Shown one piece after another: positions 43,744 through 52,447 of a stretch of DNA of 64,000 nt. Below the pieces are notes generated by a model, which saw only the letters and a list, made by a program, of their open reading frames with translations, was not told the origin of the DNA and did no database searches. The stretch is from positions 64,001 through 128,000 of the forward strand of contig CAXNJO010000003.1 of NCBI GenBank assembly GCA_964202905.1, written 5' to 3'. Source of the DNA: Polyangiales bacterium (GTDB lineage: Bacteria > Myxococcota_A > Polyangia > Polyangiales > JADJQN01). A program made the position numbers and the translations under genes. Positions within the stretch are counted from its first letter, which is position 1; every line of letters starts with the position of its first letter.

Positions 43744-45507
43744 TCAAGGCATCTGGCGGCGGAAACGGAAGCGCGGCCAGAGCGTCTGTCCGGGCACGCT
43801 GCGCGTCGTGAACTCGATGGTCAGCACATCGCCCTCGATGCCCCAGTCGAACCCCGCGCGGCCGCCCACGGGACACGTCGCGTCGGCTGCGACGGGCGAG
43901 CTGCTCGCGTCGAAGGGCACGGCGAACGTATTCTGCGACGGCTCGCCGAAGCGCGTCCCGCTCTCGGAGAGCACGATCGTGTCCTGCGCGAGATCGTAGA
44001 CGAGCGCGCCGCCACCCGTGACGACCTGCCCGCGCGCGAGCACGTACGTCTCCGCGAGATCGATGTTGCCGATCGGCGTGCCGACGCCGGTCACCGTGAA
44101 GTCGAGCGACTCGAGCACCCAACGCCCATCGGGCACCGGGCCCTGCGTGAGCGCGGGCGGCGCGGGGGCAACATTCCACATCCCGCGCACGAGCGGCGTC
44201 TCACCCGTCATGCCCGCAGGCAGGCACGCGCCCGGCGAATACGCAACATCCGTAGGCCGGTCGGCGGTGCCCTCGTCGCAGTAGCGCGCCTGGGGCGGCG
44301 GCGTCGCGTAGAGGAAGTTGAAACACATCTCGTCTTCGGTGTCCTCGCCGGAGCGCACCGTCGCGTCGCTCTCGTTCTCGAACACGCACGTCGTCTCGAT
44401 GACGTCGCCCGGCGCGAGGCGCTCGGGCAGCGAGTAGAAGAGCTGCGTCTCGAAGCTCCAGCCCGAGAGCGAGACGAGCGGCGTGCGCGTGCCCGACGCG
44501 CGGCGGATCGATTGCGTGAACTCGGACCCGCGCCGGTGCATGTGCGGCATCCCCGCGAAGAGCGTCGTCTCGGCGGGCACCGTGCAGCGGCTCGACGCGG
44601 GCGTGCGCTCGCGCGGCGGCAGCGAGAAGTTCGTCGGGCCGATCGCGATCATCCCGTATTCGGGGCCGGTCGTCGGGCCGAGGTAGAGACGCACGCCCGA
44701 CGAGTCGCGCAGCCCGTCGCGGCGCGCGCCGTTGTTGTAATGGATTTGCACGACGAAGCGCTCGCCCGGCGAGACACGCAGACCGCCCTCGGGGAACTCG
44801 AGCGCCGACTGACCGGGCGCCCACGCGTAGAGGTACTGCGAGCCAGGCGGCATGCCGCCGCCGCCATAACAGTCGTAATTGCCCGGCATCGTCTCGCGGT
44901 CGGTGTCGCGCAGCAGCACCACGTGGTGCAGCACCGAGGTCTCGTCGAAGAGCATCTCGAAGCGGCGCACGAAGCGGTCCGCGGGCACGTCCGCGTCGAA
45001 GACGAAACAGCGGTAGTCGTTGAGCGCGTCCGGCGCGACGACGTACTCGTCCGCGCGGAAGTCGAGCACGTCGAGCCCGGCGGGCGGGTCGTCGGGGGCG
45101 AGCAACGGCGGCGCACTCGCCACGAGCCCGGCCATCGGCGGCACATCCACCGTGCCGCACGACGCCCAGGCCGCGATCACATCGGCGTCGGCCTCGGGGA
45201 TGCGCGGCATACCGACCGGCGGCATCTCACCCGCGAAGAGGCGCTCGCCCATGAGATCGACGATGCGCGTCCCGCCCGGCCCCTGCGCGAGGAGCTCGAC
45301 GTGTTGCAGCAGCGAGAAGGGCGCGCCGAACGCGGGCGTCGCGCCATGGCACGAGCCGCAGTAGCGCTCGAGGCGCGGGCGCACCTCCGCCTCGTACGTC
45401 GCGAGGTCGGGCTGACAGGCCGGCGGCGGCGGCGGATCGTCCGCCGTGCAACCCGCGACGGAGACGAGGAGCGTGGCCGCGAAGGCACGGGACATTGCGC
45501 GCTTCAT
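43744..45507 (-). CDS. Lipoprotein: cytochrome c domain + copper type II ascorbate-dependent monooxygenase-like domain
   Basis: Lipobox VAGC; CGSCH..MPP; LHHVVL, QIHY, PHMH, DEMC. Confidence 0.85.
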   Translation of the reverse strand: MKRAMSRAFAATLLVSVAGCTADDPPPPPACQPDLATYEAEVRPRLERYCGSCHGATPAFGAPFSLLQHVELLAQGPGGTRIVDLMGERLFAGEMPPVGMPRIPEADADVIAAWASCGTVDVPPMAGLVASAPPLLAPDDPPAGLDVLDFRADEYVVAPDALNDYRCFVFDADVPADRFVRRFEMLFDETSVLHHVVLLRDTDRETMPGNYDCYGGGGMPPGSQYLYAWAPGQSALEFPEGGLRVSPGERFVVQIHYNNGARRDGLRDSSGVRLYLGPTTGPEYGMIAIGPTNFSLPPRERTPASSRCTVPAETTLFAGMPHMHRRGSEFTQSIRRASGTRTPLVSLSGWSFETQLFYSLPERLAPGDVIETTCVFENESDATVRSGEDTEDEMCFNFLYATPPPQARYCDEGTADRPTDVAYSPGACLPAGMTGETPLVRGMWNVAPAPPALTQGPVPDGRWVLESLDFTVTGVGTPIGNIDLAETYVLARGQVVTGGGALVYDLAQDTIVLSESGTRFGEPSQNTFAVPFDASSSPVAADATCPVGGRAGFDWGIEGDVLTIEFTTRSVPGQTLWPRFRFRRQMP

Positions 45508-45697: not shown

Positions 45698-46096
45698 ATG
45701 ACCCACGAGCCGCCGCAGTCGTTCGAGGAGTTCTGGCCCTATTACGTCTCGCAGCATCTCCACCCCGTGAGCCGCGCGCTCCACGTGGTCGGCACGAGCA
45801 TCGGACTCGCGCATCTGCCGGCGGTCGCGGTGTTCCCGCCCGCGCTCGTGCCCGCGCTCGCGTGGGGCTACGGGCTCGCGTGGCTCGGGCACTTCGCCTT
45901 CGAGAAGAACCGCCCCGCCTCGTGGAACTCGGCGCAGCATCTCGCGTGGTCCTTCCGCGGCGACATGCGGATGGTCCGCTACACGTTCACCGGGCGCATG
46001 AAGGCCGAAGTCGACCGCGTGCACGACCGCCTCGCGGCCGAGGAGATCGAGGCCGCTGCGCCGGGCGCCTCGTCCTCGCCGACCGTCCACGCCTGA
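45698..46096 (+). CDS. DUF962 (Mpo1-like) membrane protein
   Basis: FEEFWPYYVSQH..SRALHVVGT..AWLGHFAFEKNRPA. Confidence 0.9.
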   Translation: MTHEPPQSFEEFWPYYVSQHLHPVSRALHVVGTSIGLAHLPAVAVFPPALVPALAWGYGLAWLGHFAFEKNRPASWNSAQHLAWSFRGDMRMVRYTFTGRMKAEVDRVHDRLAAEEIEAAAPGASSSPTVHA

Positions 46097-46100
46097 GCCG

Positions 46101-47019
46101 ATGAGCGCGCTTCCGCGCGACGCGCTCGGCCTCGCGCTGCGACCACCGCACCACGCCGCGCTCTTCGCGGAACCGCCCCCGCTCGCTTATCTCGAGGTGA
46201 TCAGCGAGAACTTCCTCGGCACAGCAGCGCTGCCGCGGGAGCGGCTGCTGCGCGCGCGGGAGCGATATCCGATCGTGCTCCACGGCGTGGGCCTCAACCT
46301 GCTTGGCCACGCGCCGCTCGACGAGCCTTACCTCGACTCGCTCTGCCGCCTCGCGGACCATGTCGACGCGCCCTTCGTCACCGATCACCTGTGTTGGACG
46401 GGCGCGCACGGCCTCTCACACCACGACCTCCTGCCCGGTGCCCTTCGTGCCCGAGCTGATCGAGCTCGCGGCGGAGCGCGCCGCCTACGTGCAACGACGT
46501 CTCGGTCGCCCGTTCGGGCTCGAGAATCTCTCGAGCTACGTAGATTTCACGCGCTCGACGATGACGGAGTGGGACTTCGTCTCGGCCGTCGTGCGCGAGG
46601 CGGGGTGCGGCCTCCTGCTCGACGTGAACAACGTCTACGTGTCGAGCCGCAATCACGGCTTCGACCCGGACGACTACCTGCGCGCCATCGACTTCTCGCG
46701 CGTCTTGCAAGTGCACGTCGCGGGACATTCGTGCGAGCCGGACGGCACGCTCGTCGACACCCACGATCATCCGGTCACGGACGACGTCTGGGCGCTCTAC
46801 GCGCGCGCTTGGCGGATGGGCGGCCCCTTCCCGACGCTGCTCGAGTGGGATGAGCGGATTCCGCCCCTCGACGAGGCGCTCGCCGTCCTCGCGCATGCCC
46901 GCGCCGCGCGCGAGGCCGCCGAGTCCCCGCAGACTGCGCCCGATCCCGCGCATCGCGACGCCTCGAGACTCCCCTTCTCGAATCCAGCGTTCGACGCGAA
47001 GAATCCCATGCTCCGATGA
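46101..47019 (+). CDS. DUF692 multinuclear non-heme iron oxidase (MNIO; MbnB/TglH/ChrH/BufB family), frameshift ~46435
   Basis: GLALRPPH, EVISENF, HGVGL, TDHLCW, LENLSSY, LLLDVNNVYV, HVAGH, DTHD, LLEWD; one extra C in ctgcccggtg. Confidence 0.92.
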
Positions 47020-48293
47020 GCGGATCCTCGACACCCGATTGGCTCGCCCATTTTCAGGCGGGATTCGGCGCGATACTGCGCGAGCCGCTCGATCGCGAGA
47101 CGGGCACGCTCACTGCGCGCGTCGACCGCTATGCGCCGGAGACCGTGCGCGAGATTCGCGACGCCGCGAACGCGAGCGCCGCCGCACGCCTCGCCGTCTA
47201 CAACCGCCAATACTGGTTTCGGCTGTTCAGTGTCTTGCACACGGCCTATCCACTCACGACACGCCTGCTCGGTGCGTGGCGTTTCAACACGCTCGCGCAG
47301 GCCTTTCTGAGCGCCCACCCGCCGCGCACGTGGACGCTCGACGATGTCCCCGAGGGCTTCGACGACGCCCTGCCCGCGCTGCTCGGCGACGACCCCCGTC
47401 GCGAGGTGCTCTCCGAAGCCGCGCGGCTCGACGCGCACTGGCGCCGCCTTTTTCACGCGCCCGACGTCGCGCCCTTTCGCCCTGGCCCCGCCGACGCCGC
47501 GCGCCTGCCCGACGCGCGCCTGATCCCATCACCCCGCGTCGCGTTGTGGCGTGAACGCACGGCACTGCTCGCGCTGCGCCTCCAACTCCCGCCCGGGCTC
47601 GACCGTCCGCTCGCGCTCCCGTCTGCGCATCCCGCGAGCGCATGGTTCGCGCTCTGCGCAGAGCCAAATGGCATTCGCGCGCTGCCGCTCGACCCGCGCG
47701 AGGGCGCGCTGCTCGCGCTGCTCGCGCGACATCCAGTGCGGGACGCGCTCGCGCTCCTCGAGGCGGAGTGCGCCTGCCGAGCGAGCGCGACTGCCCTCCC
47801 CGCGAAGACACAGCGCTGGCTCGCGCAGAGCGTCGCGCGGGGGTTCTGGGCGGGATTCGCGGACGGCGCCGCCCAATCCCACGCTCACGGGATGACGCAG
47901 GTATATCCGGTGCAGGTGTTGAGGCCGGCGCCTCGCCTCAGGCCGCGTGCCCGCTCACAGCGCTCGACGGGCAAGATGGCTGAGCGCCGCAGCCGATTGC
48001 ACCGACGCGCGACCGACATCGCAGGCGATGTTGAGAAGGTTCGAGACAGCGGAACAGAGGACGTAGGCGACGATCCCCGCCGCCATGGCTGGGATGCCAA
48101 CCAACCATCCGCCTCGTTCTGCGAACAGCAACGACGCCAGCCCGAATCCCACTCCCACGAAGAGATTGACCCATGCAGCCGCCACGAGGAGATTCGCAAC
48201 GAAGTGGGCGTGGGCATAGGTCGGGACAGAAGGTTCGACGTACTCGGAATCATCACGCGCGGAGGAGAAGGGAGCAGGAACGCGACGCGCTGA
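47016..48293 (+). CDS. DUF2063 (HvfC/BufC-like) MNIO partner protein
   Basis: ATGA overlap with DUF692; RLAVYNRQYWFRL..L...YP....LG...F. Conserved part ends ~47870; the rest reads through into the insert. Confidence 0.85.
   Translation: MSGSSTPDWLAHFQAGFGAILREPLDRETGTLTARVDRYAPETVREIRDAANASAAARLAVYNRQYWFRLFSVLHTAYPLTTRLLGAWRFNTLAQAFLSAHPPRTWTLDDVPEGFDDALPALLGDDPRREVLSEAARLDAHWRRLFHAPDVAPFRPGPADAARLPDARLIPSPRVALWRERTALLALRLQLPPGLDRPLALPSAHPASAWFALCAEPNGIRALPLDPREGALLALLARHPVRDALALLEAECACRASATALPAKTQRWLAQSVARGFWAGFADGAAQSHAHGMTQVYPVQVLRPAPRLRPRARSQRSTGKMAERRSRLHRRATDIAGDVEKVRDSGTEDVGDDPRRHGWDANQPSASFCEQQRRQPESHSHEEIDPCSRHEEIRNEVGVGIGRDRRFDVLGIITRGGEGSRNATR
47884..47931. repeat. 48-bp direct repeat, left copy
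   Basis: ctcacgggatgacgcaggtatatccGgtgcaggtgttgaggccggcgc; 47/48 identical to 51806-51853. Confidence 0.95.
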
Positions 48294-48416
48294 TTGTCCA
48301 CCTGTCGCCCGCGTTGATTGCACTCCGCCGAACGCCTGCACATCCGATGAACCGCAGTGGCCGCAGGCAGAGCCTCGATCCGCCAACATCGCCTGACAAT
48401 TTCCACACACGTACAT
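47955..48416 (-). CDS. Zinc-ribbon membrane protein
   Basis: MYVCGNC..CGHC followed by two TM helices. Confidence 0.6.
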   Translation of the reverse strand: MYVCGNCQAMLADRGSACGHCGSSDVQAFGGVQSTRATGGQSARRVPAPFSSARDDSEYVEPSVPTYAHAHFVANLLVAAAWVNLFVGVGFGLASLLFAERGGWLVGIPAMAAGIVAYVLCSAVSNLLNIACDVGRASVQSAAALSHLARRAL

Positions 48417-48516
48417 CCCAAGGTCTCCCTTCACGACGACAATTCCGGTCGCCTGCATAACCACAACTCACATAAAACCAAATCTTAACCACCGACTCGC
48501 GCTAGGGTCTATTTCG

Positions 48517-49953
48517 GGCACTCCACCCGGTTTGATGGGTTCACAACAGGTGCTCATGCGTGACGTGGTGTGAGCACAAGGCCCGAGCAACAAAGGTAGA
48601 GCGTCGCGATGAGAGCGGTCGCGGAGTGGAAGCCGAAGGCTCGTTTCGTGATGACTCTGGCCTTCCCGTTGAAGCCCTCGCTGCGCCCGTTCGAGATGCC
48701 AGTGCGGATGTACGCGATTATGCCTTCGAGGTGTTTGCGGATCGTCTTGCCGACTCTCACGAAGGGCTTGAGCTGCGAGCGCGTGGCCCAGTCGATCCAG
48801 TTCTCGAGCCTGCGTTCGGCATCGTCTACCGTGGCCGTGCTCAAGATCCACGCGAGCATCGTCTTGAGCATGTAGGCGCGGTAGAGCGGCGCATTGGTCA
48901 CCATCACCGTCGATATCCGTTCGGTGTCCTTCGGCGTGTGGTTCACCTCGTTGCGGTGGAGCGAGTAGCGCGTGTTCTTCACGGCCTTGCCCTCCGGAGT
49001 GTTCTTCAGCTCGTGGACGATCTCGCGTCGAACTTCGTCCAGCGCGTCGTGAGCCAGCCGCTGCACATGGAAGCGGTCGAATACGATCACCGCGTTCGGC
49101 GCGTTCTTCTTGATCGCCGCCTCGTACGCGGCCGACATGTCGATCGAGACAAACTCGAGCTTCGCGGCGCGAACAGAGCCCAAGTCCCCGAAAAACTGGT
49201 CGACCGTTGCACCGCTGCGTCCTTCGCTCGCCCAGACGAGTCGGCCGCGGTCGTGGTCCACGACGACGCTAATGTACTTGTGGCCCTTGCGGTACGAGAG
49301 GTCGTCGAGCCCGATCGCGCGCAGCCCGTCGAGCAAGTCGCCGCCGGCGCGGAGCAGACGAGCGACCACGCGCGAGATGATGTTGCCGACGGTGTCCCAC
49401 GAGATGCGCATGTCCCGTGCGACGCGCGTCCGATCCGCACCTTGCGCCTTGTAGGCCACGAGCTCCTCGAAGTCCGACGTGTGCCAGGCCGCGTGCTCCG
49501 CCCACGGCACGCGCTCGGTCGTGGGGCCGCACTGTTGGCAATCGACACGGGCCAGTCGGTAGCGGAGGTACACCCGCGTCTCGCCGAGATCCGTGTGCCG
49601 CCATTGTCGCACTCGATGGTCATAACCTCGCCTGCAACGCCGCCCACAGGAGCCGCAGCACGACGTCCGTGTCGTCGGCTTCACGTCAAGCACGAGCGTC
49701 TGCCGGTCGGCGCTCAGCTCGAACGCGATCACGACCGTGTGTTGGGGGTGGAGTCGTGATAGCGAACGGAGTAGCGTGGTGGCGCGCATCGGGCCTCGAT
49801 GTGGTTGGCGTAGAGAACCAAACCGTACCGCGGTCCGTGCGCACCAAGTACGCCGTCATGCTGATGGCCATATCACGCGAATTGCCCTTCTCTCGCCGCA
49901 TCTTCTCGACCCAGAACCCGCTTTCGGAGCCCACGAAACCCAGTCGGAGAGCC
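48517..49953 (-). mobile_element. Complete ISL3-family insertion sequence with 8-bp target duplication
   Basis: TSD CTATTTCG at 48509-48516 and 49954-49961; imperfect terminal IRs ggcactccacccggtttgatgggttc / (rc) ggctctccgactgggtttcgtgggctc. Confidence 0.9.
48554..49789 (-). CDS. ISL3 family transposase
   Basis: Zn finger CGSC..CQQC, AIGLDD, SIDM, DRFHV, SNGRSEGFNGK..KRAFGF. Confidence 0.95.
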   Translation of the reverse strand: MRATTLLRSLSRLHPQHTVVIAFELSADRQTLVLDVKPTTRTSCCGSCGRRCRRGYDHRVRQWRHTDLGETRVYLRYRLARVDCQQCGPTTERVPWAEHAAWHTSDFEELVAYKAQGADRTRVARDMRISWDTVGNIISRVVARLLRAGGDLLDGLRAIGLDDLSYRKGHKYISVVVDHDRGRLVWASEGRSGATVDQFFGDLGSVRAAKLEFVSIDMSAAYEAAIKKNAPNAVIVFDRFHVQRLAHDALDEVRREIVHELKNTPEGKAVKNTRYSLHRNEVNHTPKDTERISTVMVTNAPLYRAYMLKTMLAWILSTATVDDAERRLENWIDWATRSQLKPFVRVGKTIRKHLEGIIAYIRTGISNGRSEGFNGKARVITKRAFGFHSATALIATLYLCCSGLVLTPRHA

Positions 49954-50037
49954 CTATTTCGGTCCCCGCGAGGCGAACAACAGGTGCACGACCACGATCA
50001 GTGCGTGTGGTCGCGCTCGTCCGTGGCGCGCTTTGCT

Positions 50038-51759
50038 CTATCGCCCGGCACGCGCGAAGAATAGTTCAATCACTGTTCCGCTTTGCTCAAACCGCCTCAC
50101 TTCTCCAGTCGAGTCAGTGCTGATCAGTTGGCCTTGCTCACGAGACGAGATCTCGTAAAGAGCAGCATTGTCCCCGCGACCTCCACCGTCGTGATCGCGA
50201 AGATGGATGATCAGTCTCTCGCCGCCGGAAAGCGCGAAGGTCCCGAGGAGGTACGACTCCCCTGCCCAGCCCGCTACCAGACCCGGCCTCGAGATTCGTT
50301 CCCCATGACTCGTCTCAATACCTTCCCTGTTACGAAATCCGGCGGTGACCCAGATTTCTGGCGATTCTCCTTCGAACATCCCTTGATCCCAAGGACCGTT
50401 TGTCCGACGCGGGGGAAACCGTACGGATCGCACAGCAATCCTGAACTGATCGAGCACTGAACGTTGTACCGCGCAGTCCGGCACTGGCGTGAGTTCGACG
50501 GCAACAACCTGAAGCGGTCCATCTTCACGATAGAACGCTTGCACTTGCTCCATAGGAATGGCGTTAGGGGTTTCGACTCCTCTCGGACGAAACCCGCGAG
50601 CCTGCAACGTCGATGCCGCTTGACCTGTTGTTCGTGAGCGCGAAACATCACCGCTGAAAGGTCCAATACCCCCCGACAACGACGCCGTGATTTCGACTTC
50701 CGTTCCGCAATAGGCTGCATCGAATCGACGCCCGTAGATTAGCTTGGAAACGAAATAGCGAGCCTGCGGCGGAAGGCTGGATTCCGTGAAACGAAGCCTT
50801 CCCGTATTCAACTGCTCTAAATGGTCTTCTTGGATGACCGAGACAGTCCGGATACGGACTTCTCGATTCCTGCCAACCTCTGCTTCGAAGTTGAAAGCTC
50901 GAGCAGCGGCTCGAAACTCAACTGCTTCGTCGAAGCTGAGCGTTGTACCCACAAAATTGTTTGTTGGTGCACTTTGGACATCATCCGCGCGAACTGGAAG
51001 ATGCTCCACGGCTCCTTGGAGGGGTTCCAAATCATCGGAGTACAAGCGCCCCAAGGAGCTTGAACCCATACCCCTTGCTAGCGGCAAGGTTTCCCTTGAT
51101 CGAGTCGTCCTCGTCGCGTTCTCGCCGCACTCACTCGGTGGCCCCGAAACCGCTGCATTGGCTGTCGAAGGGGACGAGAAGTTCCCGCTGCTCGCCGCCG
51201 AGGCAACGGCATGATTTGCTGCGGAGGCCACGGCGTTACGGGGCGGGAGCTGGTCGCGTCTGCTCGTGATCGTCAGGCGGGCGGAGATGCTTCGAGCAGA
51301 TTCGTAGGAAGCTACCCATACCAACCATCCCCCGGAATCCACTCCGTTCAAGTCGACCATCGGGTTGGTGCTCTCGGGGATGCCGTCGTCATTGCAGAAC
51401 CATCGTCCGCTCGGTGAACGGAGTACGAGGGCCGCATCTCCGGTCCCTGCATCCACGAAGATGCGCATGAAATCCACGCGCCCTTGAACGACGACTCGTA
51501 GGCCCGGGGTGGATGCGGAATAGCCAAGGCAACCCTCCCCGAGGTTCATGGTCTGAACATTGATTTCCGGCCCTGCACCGGCCACACCCGCCGCGACGGG
51601 AATCTCAAACCCGGCAGCGAGCGTCGAAGCATCCACAATTTGAGTCCCGTGTCGTGCAGCCGTTCCATCGAGCGAGAGATTTTGAGCGCGTGCGTTTGAA
51701 GGTGCACTGCTCATCCAGACTCCGACGCCGATCATCAAGAGCAGCAAGACGCGTCGCAT
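50038..51759 (-). CDS. Secreted multidomain protein (PPC-like N domain, unknown middle domain, C2-like C domain)
   Basis: MRRVLLLL signal peptide; DAALVLRSPSGRWFCNDD..WLVWV; WD..PEIWV..LIIHLRDHD..D. Confidence 0.7.
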   Translation of the reverse strand: MRRVLLLLMIGVGVWMSSAPSNARAQNLSLDGTAARHGTQIVDASTLAAGFEIPVAAGVAGAGPEINVQTMNLGEGCLGYSASTPGLRVVVQGRVDFMRIFVDAGTGDAALVLRSPSGRWFCNDDGIPESTNPMVDLNGVDSGGWLVWVASYESARSISARLTITSRRDQLPPRNAVASAANHAVASAASSGNFSSPSTANAAVSGPPSECGENATRTTRSRETLPLARGMGSSSLGRLYSDDLEPLQGAVEHLPVRADDVQSAPTNNFVGTTLSFDEAVEFRAAARAFNFEAEVGRNREVRIRTVSVIQEDHLEQLNTGRLRFTESSLPPQARYFVSKLIYGRRFDAAYCGTEVEITASLSGGIGPFSGDVSRSRTTGQAASTLQARGFRPRGVETPNAIPMEQVQAFYREDGPLQVVAVELTPVPDCAVQRSVLDQFRIAVRSVRFPPRRTNGPWDQGMFEGESPEIWVTAGFRNREGIETSHGERISRPGLVAGWAGESYLLGTFALSGGERLIIHLRDHDGGGRGDNAALYEISSREQGQLISTDSTGEVRRFEQSGTVIELFFARAGR

Positions 51760-51805
51760 GGTGCACCTCGAAACAAGAAGTATTGACTCTGACTCTGTGA
51801 AAGAA

Positions 51806-51853
51806 CTCACGGGATGACGCAGGTATATCCCGTGCAGGTGTTGAGGCCGGCGC
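51806..51853. repeat. 48-bp direct repeat, right copy (3' end of the Cys-rich lipoprotein gene)
   Basis: Encodes AGLNTCTGYTCVIP* on the minus strand. Confidence 0.95.
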
Positions 51854-52404
51854 AGGTGTGCTCGGACCAGACGCCGATGGTCTGGTCGTACGAGAATCCT
51901 GCGCAGGAATTGCGGCCACCGCAGGTGCGGGTGGATTTCGACGTAGCCGGACGCCGCGTCACAGAGCGCGGTGAAGTCCTCGAGCGAGATCGGCATCGCG
52001 GCGTCGCGCGAAGTCACCACGCGCACGCGGTCCGCGTCGCAGCGCGCATCGAGCAACCCGGCATCGAGCGATTCGCCAGCGTCGATGTCCGTGCCCGCGT
52101 CGAAGGACACGGCGGCGTCCATGTCCACGCCCGCATCGGTGTCGGCGCCTGCATCGGTGTCTGCCGCAGCGTCGGTGTCGCTGCCAGCATCGGTGTCGGC
52201 GCCCGCGTCCTGCGCGCGACCCGCGTCGGTGTCTTGACCAGCGTCGACCGGCGCGCTCGCGTCACGCCCCGCATCGACCGCCGGCTCGTCGTCGCCGGGG
52301 CCGCAGGCGCCCGTGAAGAAGAGCAAACCACCGAGGGCGGCGGACAAGAGCGACGCGCTCGCCGCAGGAGGCGCGGGGCGGGAGATGAGGTCGTCGAGGG
52401 GCAT
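51807..52404 (-). CDS. Lipoprotein with DAG-repeat linker and CxGxNxCxG core; candidate MNIO precursor (frameshift ~51925)
   Basis: LLSAALGGLLFFTGAC lipobox; DTDAG repeats; removing one base gives HPHCGGRNSCAGFSYDQTIGVWSEHTCAGLNTCTGYTCVIP*. Confidence 0.7.
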
Positions 52405-52447
52405 GGTGGTCGCGCGAGGATAGCGGATCACGCCGCGAAACGCGCGC

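Follow-up and report, generated by a model that had tools for sequence, protein, structure and literature searches.

Buf2 bufferins (BufA2, BUF_6/12Cys; model NF050166) are matured by an iron-dependent oxidative enzyme of the multinuclear non-haem type (MNIO; DUF692; BufB2) with a DUF2063 partner (BufC2), and carry four Cys at -4.03 Da plus one disulfide, -18 Da in sum (10.1101/2024.03.18.585515). About 16% of Buf2 carry lipoprotein signals, a few Buf1|Cytochrom_C (DUF2282) fusions were noted, and the named Buf2 fusion was to MerC (PMC12452194). Captophorins are 5-thiooxazole metallophores with DUF2282, Lys-Cys repeat and Cys-Lys precursor groups, and 5-thiooxazoles were reported for all three MNIO-PME1 systems characterised (PMC13097082). 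DAG-RiPPs, hybrids of lipoproteins with peptides that are made on the ribosome and modified after translation (RiPPs; DybA, NedA), include lipidated bufferins and oxazolins (PMC13056109). The window, a stretch of 64,000 nucleotides on contig C3 of a Polyangiales genome from a lake myxobacterium (G000; 5.68 Mb, 94% complete; relatives in Polyangiales/Myxococcota), holds a MNIO-DUF2063 gene pair converging on a gene for a stalked, Cys-rich predicted lipoprotein. This lipoprotein is very likely the substrate of the MNIO, and its domain family is, by sequence, a rearranged relative of the Buf2 bufferins. The parts of the system are as follows.

46101..47019, + strand: MNIO (DUF692) of the bufferin type; PF05114 and NF050167 are the best matches; spurious base at about 46434-46438
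47016..47895, + strand: DUF2063 partner protein (PME1 type); PF09836, E 6.5e-18; spurious bases at 47772, 47783, 47790 and 47868
52404..51807, - strand: precursor lipoprotein gene, about 198 aa; spurious base at about 51927; near-identical intact protein P0036
52303..52350, - strand: leader LLxAALxGLL with lipobox-like TGAC (Cys34); leader sequence LLSAALGGLLFFTGAC
52041..52302, - strand: acidic low-complexity stalk of Asp, Ala, Gly and Thr, with 18-nt (6-aa) repeats
51810..52040, - strand: six-Cys core domain (helix C-xxx-G, CxGxNxCxG, hairpin, HxCxGxNxCxGxxC); alignment A3; AlphaFold pLDDT 71.6, pTM 0.61
52417..52422, - strand: -10-like TAnnnT box lying 12 nt ahead of the start of the precursor gene

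The MNIO matched PF05114 in two pieces (E 1.6e-28 and 1.1e-57) and carried all seven motif segments examined, the iron-ligand motifs included. The BufB maturase model NF050167 (cut-off 310 bits) was its best family by a wide margin, and four intact MNIO relatives scored 297, 307, 308 and 315 bits. A sequence-only reading of the window had described coupled DUF692 and DUF2063 genes with no small precursor upstream, and this was borne out (PF05114, PF09836); the upstream gene was Mpo1-like (PF06127) and no precursor. The same reading had the pair converge, across an insert, on a lipoprotein of about 200 aa, which agreed with the gene listed above (about 198 aa) and with an empty site in sequencing run X4.

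Gene order was compared at 57 loci with matches above 40 bits, the window, one duplicate record and five weak matches being left out. A MNIO or DUF2063 gene adjoined the domain at 47 of the 57, as the proposed co-occurrence of core homologues with DUF692 had predicted. The domain gene was convergent (opposite strand) at 29 loci, downstream on the same strand at nine, and upstream in the canonical order precursor-MNIO-DUF2063 at nine; five of the other ten loci had no MNIO in the stretch examined and five were short contigs. In a further genome, G726, two tandem precursors stood opposite an MNIO-DUF2063 pair, and two or three tandem precursor genes faced one such pair at L033, L051 and L208.

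A tree was built from 59 MNIOs, excluding truncated ones and that of the window; the 36 that adjoined the family formed one clade (100/98) with a stem of 0.44 substitutions per site, and 21 BufA2-labelled and two other MNIOs fell outside it. The 20 MNIOs of convergent loci formed a subclade (96/89) nested inside the MNIOs of cytochrome-fused loci. Core and MNIO distances were correlated (Mantel rho 0.54, 0/999 permutations; kin not independent). Orphan copies with intact cores in G263 and G396 had a 63-64% identical MNIO elsewhere in the genome, and in G291 and G309, whose orphan copies had lost the first motif to decay, the MNIOs were only 44-51% identical. That the convergent lipoprotein is the MNIO substrate, as first proposed from the window, is considered very likely because of the linkage at 47 of 57 loci, the single MNIO clade and the canonical upstream position in nine loci.

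The conserved unit of about 76 aa consisted of a strand, a helix ending in C-xxx-G, CxGxNxCxG, a hairpin and HxCxGxNxCxGxxC. Five Cys, four Gly and one His were invariant in 35 aligned rows, and the sixth Cys was present in at least 90%. The 45-aa core of the sequence-only reading held the CxGxNxCxG motifs as stated but was too short, since the domain starts about 35 residues earlier and its sixth invariant Cys lies in the helix. The core most likely reads EIHPTCGGRNSC (HPTCGG), because intact P0036 reads so and the deletion in the X2 contig gives the same reading; HPHCGG, as read before, is probably off by one residue. Window-type proteins had a seventh Cys immediately before the domain. Across the six frames of the 5.68-Mb genome, CxGxNxCxG occurred at three places only, two of them in the precursor core. 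All 16 aligned leaders had the lipobox Cys, preceded by a hydrophobic stretch, and a strict leader/lipobox pattern matched 66 of 90 rows, with truncated and divergent rows among the misses. Stalk length ranged from 12 to 154 aa across the family.

The family was found in 20/401 genomes of the class and in 18/401 of the phylum (five of these only at E > 1e-5). Profile searches returned at least 269 clusters at 90% identity (7990 candidates scored) and, from 1.84 billion representatives, 213 clusters at 50% identity. The domain family has no curated model: the first member had no Pfam match, and other rows gave only single stray matches. Matches to MSCRAMM adhesins were weak and owed to the low-complexity stalk, and those to scorpion Toxin_5 and the Shiga B subunit were single rows, far below cut-off or at E > 0.02; all of these were rejected. 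AlphaFold modelled the single domain as a compact alpha/beta unit. Structure searches with it gave no Foldseek row at E <= 0.001 and no VIA-align row at Z >= 5, which is no proof of a new fold; a PDB sequence search for a solved relative gave one row (E 0.066), and the ESM Atlas no usable match.

Three architectures were found: stalk plus domain, as in the window; stalk, domain and cytochrome c (62/149 proteins); and lipoproteins with two to four tandem domains joined by Ser-rich linkers (P0150, P0159, P0169, P0212, P0244, P0268), a linker style that we take to resemble that of Fibrobacterota. The second and third had been missed from the window alone. Among the top 150 proteins, cytochrome c was present in 64 of the 142 that could be scored, and about six more had longer haem motifs.

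Like Buf2, the family has the CxGxNxCxG motif twice, conserves six Cys and carries a C-xxx-GG helix element, an AAxxGL-type signal or leader, a BufB-like MNIO and a DUF2063 partner; it lacks DoxX, as does Caulobacter buf2. The Cys order in Buf2 is CxGxNxCxGxxxC, CxGxNxCxG and a C-terminal helix C-xxx-GG, whereas the helix motif of the family is N-terminal; Buf2 Cys III is missing, and a new terminal Cys, a hairpin of about 10 residues between the motifs and an invariant His are present. The family is also acidic where Buf2 is Lys-rich, and has its own MNIO clade, three gene orders and frequent cytochrome c fusion; roughly four of every ten members are fused, compared with the few DUF2282 cases of Buf1|Cytochrom_C. 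The Buf2 order precursor-MNIO-DUF2063 occurred in 9/57 loci, against the convergent order in the window and 29 loci.

Against the NF050166 cut-off of 60 bits, six intact members scored 10-22 bits, and 26 of 35 domains matched the model weakly (best E 4e-7). In a profile comparison with 30 Polyangia BufA2 (probability 92%, E 7e-7) the two motifs aligned, and the BufA2 C-terminal helix motif aligned to the N-terminal helix of the family. A circular permutation of the Buf2 scaffold is plausible on these alignments because the permuted match is longer, and the tandem-repeat members help. None of 35 members matched DUF2282 (Buf1) at E 0.1. Canonical BufA2 over cut-off was present in 116/401 genomes of the class, a tally that includes the unpublished G364 and G332, and several ordinary Polyangia BufA2 also had a lipobox-like Cys and spacer. 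No canonical BufA2 was found in G000, so that the precursor is the only bufferin-like substrate found there.

With DAG-RiPPs the system shares a very likely MNIO substrate with a putative lipoprotein signal and, by prediction, cytoplasmic modification followed by the lipoprotein pathway; the core is different, most members are longer than the ORFs (open reading frames) of 50-160 aa mined for DAG-RiPPs, and lipidation here is predicted only. The combination of MNIO, PME1/DUF2063 and a Cys-rich precursor with predicted export is shared with captophorins, and the captophorin Cys-Lys group fits loosely (of 148 sequences, no more than 21 have Lys directly after a motif Cys). The earlier claim of a new kind of system was overstated, given the bufferin-type MNIO, a core related to Buf2 and the published lipid anchoring. 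Lipid-anchored MNIO products, bufferins included, are already known; the family, its enzyme clade and the haem fusion are apparently new. No description of these three was found in the literature searched, which left out most supplements, where members may be listed; three core motifs did not occur in the two supplementary tables of PMC12452194, which hold mostly accessions and one of which was truncated.

We consider it probable that the MNIO and DUF2063 proteins oxidise four Cys in the C-terminal domain of the lipoprotein to 5-thiooxazoles and so make a membrane-tethered copper binder; the thiooxazole chemistry and copper role are proposed by analogy with the systems of 10.1101/2024.03.18.585515 and PMC13097082. 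Both transcription units would be expressed from their own sigma-70-type, short-leader promoters. In the cytoplasm, an RRE-like (RiPP recognition element-like) domain of the partner would bind the LLxAALxGLL leader, which would double as signal peptide, and the MNIO would act on four core Cys out of six, each losing about 4 Da; the remaining two would pair in a disulfide once exported, for a total of -18 Da as in Buf2. Export by Sec, transfer of diacylglyceryl to Cys34 and cleavage by signal peptidase II would place the domain on a flexible acidic stalk of about 90 residues, where it could bind copper in the cell envelope. The insert is a passenger: it duplicated the shared 3' ends, and both genes stay whole.

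Several observations weigh against this reading or its parts. Many convergent loci were near-copies, and convergence is one evolutionary event; the MNIO tree was midpoint-rooted and held no Buf1 or oxazolin MNIOs. L106 kept its MNIO despite a decayed first motif, and L054 had an intact core and no MNIO within 5 kb. Copper transporter, DoxX and SigF/NrsF genes were not recurrent among the ten neighbour clusters scanned. The leader's n-region ran to 18 aa, which is long, and held only one Arg; Thr occupied position -3 of the lipobox. Permuting BufA2 gained little (score 34.7 to 37.4, columns 28 to 43). The residue after the proposed catalytic Asp was Ala, Glu, Asp or His (20, 8, 7 and 1 of 36 MNIOs), so the Cys-Lys specificity rule is not simply transferable.

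The cytochrome c fusion separated the gene orders fully: 18/18 co-directional loci carried a His/Met cytochrome c fusion and 0/29 convergent loci did. The haem-site Cys-His and a Met were invariant in 18 aligned fusions (alignment A5), and class I cytochrome c (PF00034) was above cut-off in 3/3 fused loci scanned and in 2/4 further proteins; the haem motif was CxxCH, or CxxxCH as in the L047 fusion. The AlphaFold model of a fusion had two domains (pTM 0.81), its CxGxN loops being least certain, and class I cytochromes were its best Foldseek rows, although no row reached E <= 0.001. Because window-type MNIOs nest inside those of cytochrome-fused loci, the haem was likely lost and the gene inverted in a single joint event; the haem-less convergent form of the window appears derived and the fusion ancestral. 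The earlier statement that the precursor is encoded convergently rather than in the operon thus held for the window and 29 loci, but describes a derived trait of one subclade, 18 loci being co-directional.

The haem-fused form is the strongest lead, and was invisible from the window alone. It raises the possibility, which we put forward tentatively, of a third bufferin-type family that was ancestrally a RiPP-modified redox protein, with a thiooxazole copper site packed against a His/Met c-type haem and tethered by lipid. In such a protein, peptide-modifying enzymes would have built a centre for copper-haem electron transfer or for copper reduction, and the window would hold a derived, haem-less and inverted form of it. 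That the family is mainly a redox module, in which the modified Cys domain holds copper beside the c-type haem and passes electrons, the window form being a reduced relic or using a separate cytochrome, is unlikely. The fusion at all co-directional loci and in 62/149 proteins, its invariant haem ligands, the two-domain model with cytochromes as best structural rows, and a di-haem peroxidase-like gene at four locus records (two of them the same contig) favour it; the window's clade, however, is haem-less and yet has kept all six Cys across 29 loci, so that the domain works alone, and no electron partner was conserved beside convergent loci.

In some fusions (L048, L105, L107-L109) the domain was preceded by an EF-hand-like segment and a metal-binding repeat of the MopE-like type (PF11617). 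The palindrome TGCGAAA-n-TCGCA lay upstream of the MNIO at 6/6 downstream-cytochrome loci with upstream DNA (L036, L038, L039, L041, L046 and, loosely, L043) and at 0/14 convergent loci, the pattern having been derived from these same loci; we assume a resemblance to RegA/PrrA-type sites. A DUF3570 gene was present at 10 cytochrome-fused locus records (two being one contig), including L036-L038, L040-L043, L045 and L046; some of these records also had DUF2271, YtkA-like and di-haem peroxidase-like genes. A histidine kinase gene recurred at four loci.

A MNIO substrate whose product is unlike bufferins, through other chemistry (a crosslink, or fewer sites) or another metal, is distinctly improbable. 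The dedicated MNIO clade on its long stem, the rearranged Cys order with an invariant His before the second motif, and Cys-Ala/Arg/Asn/Thr/Gly instead of Cys-Lys would fit such a product; the MNIO nevertheless scores at the BufB cut-off, and the systems characterised in PMC13097082 all gave 5-thiooxazoles. We regard as very improbable an unmodified, disulfide-bonded surface protein that merely neighbours a MNIO whose substrate lies elsewhere. Its gene is on the opposite strand with a likely separate promoter, six Cys could give three disulfides, and similar stalked lipoproteins are common in G000, but the association with one MNIO clade holds through three gene orders, the canonical upstream one included, and no other bufferin precursor was found in G000.

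In the window assembly the Cys-rich end of the lipoprotein lay in a different frame from its start. Short-read contigs were without one base at 46434/46438 (X2/X1), at 47772, 47783 and 47790 (X1, X2; X4 at nearby places), at 47868 (X1, X3) and at 51927/51924 (X2/X4), each place being covered by two or three runs with one low-depth contig (depth 3-5) per run; all four lake runs come from a single study, and the source sample may be among them. All six disturbances were single-base gains in the assembly, and intact relatives agreed with the contigs without the extra bases. The six bases are assembly errors, because they are absent from the short-read contigs. The proposal that a spurious 1-nt frameshift hid the core was thus correct, and its alternative, real frameshifts, fell away; extra bases also hit the DUF2063 gene, beyond what had been read from the window. 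The two convergent genes were separated by an insert between direct repeats (47884-47931 and 51806-51853, 47/48 identical).

47884..47931, no strand: left 48-bp repeat copy, the last 15 precursor codons including the stop; also holds the DUF2063 stop
47932..51805, no strand: low-GC insert (3.9 kb), GC 0.61 compared with 0.71 in the flanks
51806..51853, no strand: right 48-bp repeat copy, the precursor gene's own 3' end

The insert is real: its junctions were bridged by short-read contigs (left, X1 and X3; right, X1 and X2), which rules out an assembly artefact. A relative about 91% identical in run X4 joined 47864 to 51806, which is the empty site. The DUF2063 stop (47893-47895) lies within the left repeat, and in relatives the DUF2063 stop and the precursor 3' end overlap by 11 nt, so that neither gene is cut short, thanks to the 48-bp repeat. 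No family match was present in the closest GTDB relatives (G723-G725) or in G395 (80-100% complete), and the empty site is therefore not demonstrable there. A decayed pseudo-operon, suggested by six extra bases and a 3.9-kb insert, is barely credible and largely refuted, the bases being single-base gains absent from short-read contigs and the repeat restoring both 3' ends.

The analysis gives a very likely substrate to a group of myxobacterial MNIOs, one clade, that would otherwise seem orphaned. The published census was confined to ORFs of under 200 aa that precede the MNIO gene (PMC12452194), so that precursors in convergent or downstream position, which make up 38 of the 47 linked loci, lie outside it; together with the 50-160-aa limit of PMC13056109, these mining limits would miss most of the family. 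A natural rearrangement of the Buf2 scaffold offers a model for how MNIOs choose cysteines, and cores 50-150 residues from the leader let the reach of the MNIO be probed. The frequent cytochrome c fusion makes redox work by thiooxazole copper sites, besides sequestration, directly testable.

TAnnnT boxes stood 5-14 nt before the start of 10/15 convergent precursors and of 11/14 MNIO genes, against 0.4 expected in each set, as would suit two promoters with short leaders; the precursor likely has its own promoter, as judged from this box. A strict sigma-70 scan gave 0 promoters, there was no clear terminator between the convergent genes, and no RNA data covering the locus were listed among the sequencing runs searched. 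The remaining features are the gene upstream of the MNIO and the contents of the insert.

45698..46096, + strand: Mpo1-like (DUF962) gene; PF06127, E 3.4e-24; ends 4 nt before the MNIO start
47955..48464, - strand: 169-aa zinc-ribbon-like/membrane ORF, insert cargo; no family above cut-off
48517..49953, - strand: ISL3 element (transposase 49789-48554); NF033550, 326 bits; 8-bp target duplication CTATTTCG
50038..51759, - strand: 573-aa insert cargo with a signal-peptide-like start; no Pfam/NCBIfam match

The Mpo1-like gene is probably co-transcribed with the MNIO; it is not conserved in the family, being found outside the window at L072 only among the upstream regions compared. Two genes from the MNIO, 43744-45507 (- strand) encodes a lipoprotein in which copper type II monooxygenase domains are combined with a motif like that of cytochrome c; relatives do not conserve it at this place. 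This gene and a GMC oxidoreductase gene were rejected as parts of the system, since they had no match in L001-L003 and were absent from 30 recurrent neighbour clusters. A second, distant MNIO (31% identity) with no recognised precursor alongside was present at G000:C18:13518.

No integrase was recognised in the insert, and its ISL3 element had a second copy on contig C6. The N-terminal 190 aa or so of the 573-aa cargo were common in Polyangiales; residues of about 210-480 had only two weak relatives in 61 genomes. By eye, these residues presumably resemble a pore-forming-type domain. Similar integrase-less low-GC inserts were found at G000:C1:873113-875032 (48-bp repeat at a TauE/SafE-like gene, glycosyltransferase-like cargo, both named by sequence reading) and at G000:C6:361622-362947 (108-bp repeat at an ammonium transporter gene, with a Mrr restriction gene as cargo). 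An AT-rich repeat patch (GC 0.29) closes contig C19 (G000:C19:25236-25790) and is possibly foreign or a contaminant. All three inserts, the window's included, lay between direct repeats that copy the 3' end of a gene with its stop, and only one AT-rich patch ranked above them among the low-GC cases of the genome.

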